From a virus, in the IMG/VR virus record IMGVR_UViG_3300033463_003852: a DNA stretch of 10,273 bases. One strand, given 5' to 3'. Under the pieces are notes generated by a model. That model saw only the letters and a program-made list of their open reading frames with translations. It was not told the origin of the DNA and searched no databases. A program made the position numbers and the translations under genes. Position 1 is the stretch's first letter, and each line of letters opens with the position of its first letter. Positions 5,139 to 5,969 of this stretch are shown here, piece by piece.

Positions 5139-5417
5139 TTACTCATCTAACCTATACATAATAATAGGAGCCTTATCGCCAGCATATGGCAAGGATCTAA
5201 TTGTATTATATTCGATCCATTCTATTGCATCCGTACAGCTCATATCATTGTTTCTCATAAGATAGTTAATCATTAGATCAAAATCGTAAATAGCTCGCCC
5301 ATCGTTTGATATACCAACAAGCGCATCATCATAACTTTCTCCTAGTTGATTTCCAAAAATAATTACATCTTCATATCCTGCATCTAATATCTTGTCTTCA
5401 GCTGTCACAAAAATCAC
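5139..5417 (-). CDS. Hypothetical protein (~90 aa). Start is ambiguous: GTG 5417 or GTG 5408. It is in-frame with the upstream ERCC4 gene across TAG-ATT-TAG.
   Basis: No ATG start. AGGAAG lies 8 nt upstream of GTG 5408..5406. The frame is continuous with 5427..5960, separated only by two TAG codons. Stop is TAA. Confidence 0.45.
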   Translation of the reverse strand: MIFVTAEDKILDAGYEDVIIFGNQLGESYDDALVGISNDGRAIYDFDLMINYLMRNNDMSCTDAIEWIEYNTIRSLPYAGDKAPIIMYRLDE

Positions 5418-5426
5418 TTCCTAAAT

Positions 5427-5969
5427 CTATTTAATAATATTCCTTAAATAATACTGAAAATAACCACGAATAAATACTGGTGTAAACTGTGCATCTGGCA
5501 TGAACATGACTGGGATATCAAACTCGTGCCAAAAAGAATGAAGTGTTGCCCAATATGATTTACTGTCATACCTTGACCTATAATTCCCGCTAATCAAATC
5601 CGCATAACTTCCGTTTTCTATTAACAAAACTTTGTGTTTTGGTGCAAGTGTAAATTCTTTTTTAATACGCTCTCGCTCCTTTGTTATATTGCCAGCAAAT
5701 TCGTCAAGACTTGCTTTTCGTTCGATCACTATTTCTTTATCAAAATATAAATCTCTTATTATTCCCAAATCTTCGTTTGCCGGAACCATAAAAGAGTAAT
5801 CTCCATAGTCTAATTTCTGTTTTGTCCAATTTATTTTTTTCTTATCAAAATAATTTAAAATATGATCATTCTTGCCATCATGTTCTCTAGTATCAACAAG
5901 AACTGTCATACTATTTAACAGCTTATCTTGCTCTGCTTTTGTGTAGTGATATAATTCCAACTACGTCAT
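5427..5969 (-). CDS. ERCC4/XPF-Mus81-Hef-type nuclease domain protein (~177 aa). The apparent start is ATG 5969 followed by ACG-TAG-TTG; the track start is TTG 5960.
   Basis: The ERCC4 catalytic signature is TVLVDTREHDGK ... KLDYGDYSF ... IVIERKASLDEFAGN (the GDY...ERK..D motif). ATG 5969..5967 has a near-perfect SD (AAAAAGGAGGaatt, 5-nt spacing) and overlaps the TGA of the upstream gene as ATGA, but the third codon is TAG. TTG 5960 is 14 nt from the SD. The stop is TAG (5429..5427), followed two codons later by a second in-frame TAG. Confidence 0.65.

Follow-up and report, generated by a model that had tools for sequence, protein, structure and literature searches.

A single early in-frame TAG recurs across a clade of phage ERCC4-type nuclease genes and is probably read through

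We analyzed the 10,273-nucleotide (nt) stretch of viral DNA catalogued in IMG/VR as IMGVR_UViG_3300033463_003852, hereafter the window, and in particular its minus-strand gene for an ERCC4-type nuclease, whose third codon is an in-frame TAG. In this gene and in nearly all of its close relatives, one TAG interrupts the first ten codons. Judging from this comparative evidence, we consider it probable that the early TAG is read through, either under genetic code 15 (TAG = Gln) or by suppression, in which case the window phage would join the TAG-recoded phages known from the gut and rumen. The best explanation of our data is a large phage of a Clostridia-type host in which UAG is not a dependable stop. 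Glutamine (Gln) is most likely the residue decoded at UAG in this phage, and we infer the same residue for the nuclease site itself.

Window codons were read directly from the minus strand. A Shine-Dalgarno (SD) sequence, AAGGAGG (5974..5980, minus strand), serves an ATG at 5967..5969 (minus strand) with a 4-nt spacer. This ATG is most likely the true start of the nuclease, and the relatives start at an ATG in the equivalent place. It is overlapped, as ATGA, by the TGA (5968-5966) of an upstream gene for an 85-amino-acid (aa) hydrophobic protein (5966..6223, minus strand), an arrangement of translational coupling. The next codons on the minus strand are ACG (codon 2, 5966-5964), the in-frame TAG (codon 3, 5961..5963), for which the pattern in the relatives suggests read-through, and TTG (5958..5960). 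The TTG is a conserved Leu codon (codon 2 in relatives, which begin M-L/I/F-E...) and also the start used by gene callers. Counted from the ATG, the nuclease gene (5427..5969, minus strand) has 180 codons followed by a TAG; counted from the TTG, the open reading frame (ORF) has 177 codons. The initial annotation had described the SD, the ATGA overlap, the TAG as third codon and the adjoining TTG as we read them; its spacings were each one nucleotide too long, since we measured 4 nt rather than 5 nt between SD and ATG, and 13 nt rather than 14 nt between SD and TTG. The 5' TAG is identical in the independent Logan assembly L005, and the only other TAG stop outside the nuclease gene, at 905-907, is identical in Logan assembly L003; across both TAGs, the independent assemblies L003, L005 and L006 match the window. 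Because the TAGs are identical in independent assemblies, assembly error is ruled out.

We gathered nuclease genes together with their DNA from IMG/VR, JGI metagenomes, ENA and Logan, and took as the close clade the 28 distinct ERCC4 genes at least 57% identical to the window gene, which is counted in. Exactly one in-frame stop is present in each of the 28 genes; it is always TAG and always within the first ten codons, at codon 3 in 10 genes (M-[ILFT]-TAG-L...), codon 9 in 11 and codon 10 in seven (...Y-T-TAG-x-E...). The 5004 codons of these genes contain no second in-frame TAG, and the remaining ~4700 codons hold 82 CAA/CAG. Above 59.8% identity, the sole distinct sequence without an early TAG is L186/L019. 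In two relatives, the early TAG was unchanged in seven and five independent assemblies, respectively. The alignment of these genes suggests that within the clade the TAG moved between positions and was almost never lost. The window nuclease, for example, has AAA (Lys) at position 9 and its TAG at codon 3 instead, and the ACGTAG behind its ATG is apparently a 6-nt insertion relative to the relatives that begin M-L-E-L-Y. The same hexamer, with its amber codon, occurs at window positions 5961-5966 (codons 2-3) and at 10019-10024 of locus L007 (codons 8-9). We found no published report of this early-TAG pattern in ERCC4 genes in the literature.

All 28 genes have a strong SD before the ATG that lies upstream of the TAG (mean match 6.5 nt, n = 19 with the TAG at codon 9 or 10). 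The ratio of nonsynonymous to synonymous polymorphism (pN/pS) was 0.36 over the seven codons before the TAG and 0.26 over the eight codons after it, with synonymous sites near saturation. These low values on both flanks indicate that both sides are translated in one frame. In the 27 other genes, the codon after the TAG is ACA, AAA, AAG, GGA, AGT, GCT, CTA or TTA, none of which is a start, and read-through would therefore be required in the relatives. A restart codon beside the TAG is present in the window phage only (TAG-TTG) and is not conserved among these 27 genes. We also considered reinitiation at an internal Met18 in the relatives and rejected it: no SD lies ahead of codon 18 in the TAG-bearing genes, this codon is often ATA, ATT, ATC or GTT and thus Ile or Val, and the intervening codons are conserved. 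Further out, a 51% identical relative (L009, ~9090-9130) has a strong SD, GAGGAGGAA, followed by an out-of-frame ATG-TAA start-stop; its ERCC4 frame has no canonical start nearby, and in L010 the gene is without an ATG as well. This nuclease gene may more widely be initiated in unusual ways.

An exact protein match led to the source contig in ENA, ERZ27257207:k141_1723255 (59,317 bp), of which the window is the reverse complement. We rebuilt record 1-50125 of this contig from loci L119, L004, L002 and L272, aided by an IMG/VR contig that is 100% identical over 6.2 kb. TAG is rare as a terminator both here and in the relatives. The 28 close-clade nuclease genes end in TAA (20), TGA (seven) or TAG (one, the window gene), whereas among 98 more distant relatives without an early TAG it is the commonest nuclease stop (39/98 vs 1/28, Fisher p = 1.4e-4). 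Within ~20-kb flanks, TAG ends 15 of 324 ORFs (4.6%) in TAG-bearing loci and 36 of 172 (21%) in the others (p = 4e-8). The window shows the scarcity that the initial annotation had noticed: just two of its 21 minus-strand ORFs close with TAG, namely the nuclease ORF and the ORF ending at 905-907. In the public gene calls of the source contig, we checked 78 complete genes and found TAG as the stop of four; a further TAG end belongs to a PDDEXK_1 gene, which runs off the end of its locus.

The TAG at 905-907 lies inside a gene for a 77-aa Cys-rich, zinc-ribbon-like protein (818..1051, minus strand), which is called as 48 aa under code 11. That an open frame continues behind this TAG had been pointed out before, and indeed 28 open codons follow it. 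Homology goes on through these 28 residues to the TAA at 818-820, and over its full length the 77-aa protein can be aligned with homologs in L021 and L007, as well as with a paralog that lies 3.6 kb downstream on the same contig; all three have a real Gln codon (CAA/CAG) at the 905-907 position. We therefore read TAG 905-907, too, as a sense codon within a conserved small protein. The paralog (L001 18546-18779, contig record ~33565, outside the window) itself carries an in-frame TAG, at codon 17, is called as a 62-aa protein, and is aligned at that codon with Gln in the window copy and with Q or E in the homologs. In a GIY-YIG-type gene of L007, a TAG occupies the Gln of the 'YIGQS' motif, where aligned homologs carry a real Gln; here and in the paralog, homology extends to either side of the TAG. 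Clear sense TAG sites are very sparse, with three in 50 kb. A C5 cytosine methyltransferase gene in L030 (14048-14914) has TAG-CAT inserted inside the conserved FPCQ-DLS motif when compared with six relatives.

For contigs of the relatives, code 15 (TAG = Gln) was the choice of a public gene caller that is independent of our analysis. We had initially taken the 'Q' in the database homologs P0002/L478 and P0049/L479 as proof of Gln, and withdrew it: their DNA has TAG, and the caller had used a TAG = Gln table. A 'Q' in some public protein sets is thus a TAG codon and is not usable as evidence for the decoded amino acid. Pyrrolysine at TAG was set aside, as we saw no pyl genes and Gln stands at the DNA-verified sites. 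The clade-wide TAG at fixed positions, the conservation of its flanks, the depletion of TAG stops and the Gln in DNA-verified homologs at 905 together give strong support, for the 5' TAG and the 905 TAG, to the first of three explanations offered in the initial annotation, amber read-through or reassignment.

The interrupted gene encodes a genuine ERCC4-type nuclease. It matches Pfam PF02732 (E = 3.3e-9, residues 22-160) and phrog_3490 (E = 2.5e-42, with the profile match beginning at residue 12), and it contains the GDXn-ERKX3D catalytic motif (GDY...ERKx3D). In alignment A1, G53-D54 and E80-R81-K82 are invariant, as are L85 and E87. Among 507 nuclease homologs at E<=1e-10, about 45 of the best 120 are called 10-18 residues short, and in both short homologs that we checked at the DNA level (P0045 and P0083) the truncation is due to an early TAG. 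Standard annotation misreads these genes, leaving about a third of the database homologs N-terminally truncated and the 77-aa protein called as 48 aa.

Several observations weigh against read-through of the early TAG. At the ERCC4 TAG sites themselves, the residue in DNA-verified homologs is K/D/E (position 9) or E/D/Q (position 3), which leaves Gln a candidate residue at these sites. We searched for transfer RNAs (tRNAs) with ARAGORN and Rfam in the window, in the 50 kb of source contig and in 479 related loci (7.2 Mb). The window contains no tRNA gene, and neither the 50 kb, which come from an incomplete genome, nor the 479 loci yielded a tRNA with a CUA anticodon; nor did they yield a release factor or a glutaminyl-tRNA synthetase (GlnRS). 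A suppressor tRNA and a release factor, both named in the initial annotation as places to look, were thus not found in the recovered 50 kb, and the gain in coding density that it had also suggested comparing is slight: 0.903 under code 11 and 0.913 with TAG open over 50 kb, and similarly small in the relatives' replication modules. So small a gain is what one would see if TAG were limited to a few early genes. The 50 kb recovered contain no structural genes, and thus none of the capsid, terminase and lysis genes in which recoded phages classically carry in-frame TAGs; the contig must be part of a larger phage. Starting from MT835469.1, a distant relative with the standard code, we used its terminase, portal and capsid genes to reach structural modules in 120 loci, and these contained no in-frame TAG; none of them is on a TAG-clade contig, which makes them uninformative. 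The public gene caller scored the window's own contig as code 11. At least two genes here, PDDEXK_1 and ERCC4, have a TAG as their natural end, which does not fit complete reassignment. The TAG that ends the PDDEXK_1 gene (L004 369-371, contig record ~11323, outside the window) stands exactly where TGA is found in the relative L098, and the gene shares its frame with a 77-aa gene that follows next, a second natural TAG end with an in-frame neighbour; TAG is therefore not purely a sense codon in this phage. Finally, the nuclease TAG of the window phage is directly followed by TTG, a valid bacterial start.

This TTG is the basis of a different account, in which the first two codons form a minimal upstream ORF (uORF): ribosomes would start at ATG 5969, stop at TAG 5963-5961 and restart at TTG 5960, or else start directly at the TTG, with the nuclease beginning M-E-L-Y and TAG an ordinary stop. 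The public gene call does start at the TTG, the resulting protein is one residue shorter than the relatives' N-termini, and the phrog profile begins only at residue 12; the failure to find a suppressor tRNA and the natural TAG ends of PDDEXK_1 and ERCC4 also agree with such an arrangement. We nonetheless judge it unlikely, given that 27 TAG-bearing relatives have a non-start codon after the TAG and yet conserve the next eight codons as protein, that the TTG is itself the conserved Leu of M-L-E-L-Y, and that a 13-nt spacing is poor for direct initiation. It would also leave TAG 905-907 unexplained, where no start follows and homology goes on. A two-codon uORF with reinitiation, the second explanation in the initial annotation, is therefore feasible for this phage taken alone, with its TTG after the TAG, but does not extend to the relatives, in which the TAG is followed by codons such as ACA, AAA, CTA or TTA. 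TTG 5960 could serve as a fallback reinitiation start of the nuclease.

The 3' end of the nuclease gene bears on a further possibility, complete reassignment of TAG to Gln. The order of codons here is AAA, TAG (5429-5427), ATT, TAG (5423-5421), GAA, GTG (5417-5415), ATT, TTT and GTG (5408-5406). The tandem TAG-ATT-TAG (5421..5429, minus strand) marks the natural C-terminus of the nuclease, and the frame past it stays open up to a TAA at 5141-5139. Direct reading bears out the earlier description of this tandem and of a frame that runs on into the downstream ORF, but moves the start of that ORF from 5417 to GTG 5408, since its homologs begin MTAE and the public gene call agrees. The downstream gene (5139..5408, minus strand) encodes an 89-aa, phrog_13182-like protein, starts with GTG in frame with the nuclease, and is preceded by an SD-like AGGAAGTGA at 5414-5422 (minus strand).

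Under complete reassignment, the nuclease and the 89-aa protein would form a 276-aa fusion through TAG-ATT-TAG, and PDDEXK_1 would likewise be fused to its neighbour. Consistent with this, both genes with a natural TAG end share a frame with the gene that follows, TAG serves as a sense codon at other places in the contig, and the relatives never end the nuclease in TAG. The relatives' genes nevertheless make such fusions quite improbable. All 27 end the nuclease at the same residue (..NIIK, ..GIIK), with TAA or TGA, and in relatives the downstream gene has its own start overlapping or after that stop: in L205 its ATG overlaps the ERCC4 TGA (AAATGA), and in L027 it starts 24 nt after the TAA with its own SD. 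The best 120 homologs of the 89-aa protein are stand-alone, nearly all of 84-99 aa, and none of the 120 is fused to an ERCC4 domain. The window phage, too, has retained the SD-like AGGAAGTGA and has a GTG at the point that corresponds to the MTAE start of the homologs, and two TAGs one codon apart resemble reinforced termination. The fusion of the nuclease to its downstream neighbour raised in the initial annotation is thus unsupported. We had separately considered that a fusion might account for the apparent N-terminal shortness of the 89-aa protein relative to phrog_13182, and rejected this in view of the stand-alone homologs and their lengths.

The two genes are normally separate, and their common frame in this phage, which by chance arises one time in three, is probably incidental. 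TAG-ATT-TAG is most likely a doubled terminator that would limit run-on into the independently initiated 89-aa gene: with partial decoding of TAG, a pair of them separated by one codon would square the rate of termination failure, which makes the doubling a reasonable ending for a TAG-terminated gene in a phage of this kind. A minority fusion product of the nuclease and the 89-aa protein is possible.

Chance, sequencing error or a decaying pseudogene, under which the TAGs would be accidental nonsense codons without function, might pass for this single window, as TAG stops do occur in AT-rich genomes, but is hardly credible for 28 diverged genes that each have one TAG in the first ten codons, none elsewhere and never a TAA or TGA in its place, with purifying selection on both flanks, an intact remainder including the catalytic ERK motif, identical sequence in independent assemblies and, against a shared-pipeline artefact, relatives' TAGs from ENA, Logan, JGI and IMG/VR; chance, the last explanation in the initial annotation, was accordingly rejected.

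If, as we favour, the early TAG is read through, translation of the nuclease would start at ATG 5969 behind its strong SD, and the ribosome would pass the UAG at codon 3 to give a product beginning MT(Q)LELYHYTK.... Termination at the UAG would release a dipeptide only, or a peptide of 2-9 residues across the clade, so that nuclease output would be proportional to read-through. Such a gate could time nuclease production, should a suppressor be made later in infection, or attenuate it, should only a part of the ribosomes read through. By analogy with phage junction-resolving enzymes, ERCC4-type structure-specific nucleases plausibly harm replicating DNA if present early or in excess. It is conceivable, although we advance the idea tentatively, that the early UAG is a dedicated, selectable 'amber gate' for a toxic or late-needed enzyme, set among neighbouring early genes that follow the standard code. 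Leaky decoding by tRNA-Gln(UUG) without a suppressor would perhaps make it an attenuator and not a code change, and the doubled 3' TAG would then be a countermeasure to run-on.

The tRNAs that we did find in the 50 kb are two copies of tRNA-Ile(UAU) and one tRNA-Gln(UUG). The latter is present in every tRNA cluster found in the group, including the clusters of relatives without the TAG. Just downstream of ERCC4, several loci contain tRNA genes with 45-50-nt insertions in or beside the anticodon arm that share the motif ACAGCAA(T/A) (L479 12378-12496 and 12589-12708; L022 12426-12541; L340 4427-4542; L190 2615-2731). These genes were found by Rfam and missed by ARAGORN, which was run without introns, and one is a tRNA-Thr(UGU) once the insert is removed. 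A separate tRNA-like gene (L190 2456-2525, L340 3399-3473) has normal acceptor, D and T arms and an aberrant anticodon arm, which in L190 pairs perfectly as a 5-bp stem (CGAGG/CCTCG) around a loop of just three nucleotides, TAG. Two members of the subclade with the TAG at codon 3 share this aberrant gene, which is conserved between them.

The genes in the recovered 50 kb are all on one strand and are early, replication or auxiliary genes: AAA_24, SSB, DnaB, primase, PDDEXK_1, DNA polymerase III alpha, many DUF551 paralogs, ERCC4, an HD protein, a vault-like protein, RNA-repair genes, methylases and a ligase. The contigs that carry relatives measure 100-205 kb. Those relatives that have been cultured, with DNA polymerase III alpha 37-45% identical, are large phages of Bacillota, and ERCC4 relatives are also found within bacterial genomes of Lachnospiraceae, Acutalibacteraceae and Oscillospiraceae. 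Among GenBank phages, we found no megablast match to the window. The ENA contig and the independent IMGVR_UViG_3300033463_001098 end at the identical base (L119 position 1, which is contig record position 1), and this shared end suggests a physical genome end or a repeat boundary.

Two further features of the window region deserve mention. At 1551-3974 (minus strand), the window encodes an 807-aa protein with a match to the shoulder domain of the major vault protein (PF11978, E = 3e-17) and weaker ones to SPFH/Band 7 and the vault repeat; its gene adjoins the HD protein gene in relatives too (L012, L021), and a vault-like protein is unusual for a phage. At ~7900-10273 (minus strand; L004 9400-12100) lies an array of small DUF551-like paralogs that end in a common ..AWMPLPEPY/W..E motif, with overlapping ORFs and a GC content of 0.39-0.44 as against 0.32-0.37; an insertion of ~9 kb here separates DNA polymerase III alpha from ERCC4, two genes that adjoin in relatives.

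Stop-codon recoding in phages is already known as a general phenomenon; what is distinctive here is that a single TAG is confined to the first ten codons of a replication-module nuclease. Such recoding is thought to be a timing switch, and to our knowledge this has never been tested on a simple case. One position-conserved amber codon in dozens of diverged phages, with variants at codons 3, 9 and 10 and one member that lacks it, offers a clean, testable model of a recoding switch.

Programmed read-through is known from the Q-beta A1 protein, at UGA, and from murine leukaemia virus (MuLV) gag-pol, at a UAG decoded as Gln. There, a leaky stop sets the ratio of terminated to extended product, which could apply to the 3' TAG-ATT-TAG and to the PDDEXK_1 TAG, and the nuclease would further resemble MuLV if a near-cognate or suppressor tRNA inserts Gln at its UAG. 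The Q-beta and MuLV signals, however, lie at the ends of ORFs and add a C-terminal extension, whereas the nuclease TAG would be a 5' gate whose terminated product is 2-9 residues long. Minimal uORFs and start-stop elements with coupled termination and reinitiation also occur in bacteria. The nuclease gene shares with them an SD, an ATG and a stop within a few codons and, in the window phage, a start-capable TTG behind the stop; unlike them, it has relatives without a restart codon, and its codons before the TAG belong to a conserved protein.

The closest parallels are the recoded phages of the gut. Borges et al. (10.1101/2021.08.26.457843) described the recoded clades Garnet, Amethyst, Agate and Topaz, in which replication genes are standard-code. 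TAG-to-Gln recoding has been validated by proteomics in crAss-like phages (PMC9523058), and the phAss-1 group is predicted to infect Clostridia, with some recoded phages reported to lack suppressor tRNAs (PMC10607447). Like the code 15 gut phages, the phages studied here have in-frame TAGs inside conserved genes, at Gln positions in the 905 and GIY-YIG cases, a strong depletion of TAG stops and a replication module most of which can be read in the standard code, and recoding has been proposed there as a post-transcriptional switch. They differ in having no suppressor tRNA(CUA) in the 50 kb or the relatives' flanks, in the sparseness of their TAGs, in using TAG at some natural gene ends, and in a contig that is publicly scored as code 11. 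The nuclease itself is most reminiscent of the Agate intron (homing) endonuclease, which lies in an early gene and is preferentially recoded, with TGA (Trp) (Borges et al., 10.1101/2021.08.26.457843): both are early-region nucleases with an in-frame stop that should block synthesis until the code switches. In Agate this is a statistical preference and the codon is TGA, whereas the ERCC4 nuclease genes have one TAG each, always in the first ten codons at one of three positions and almost never lost.

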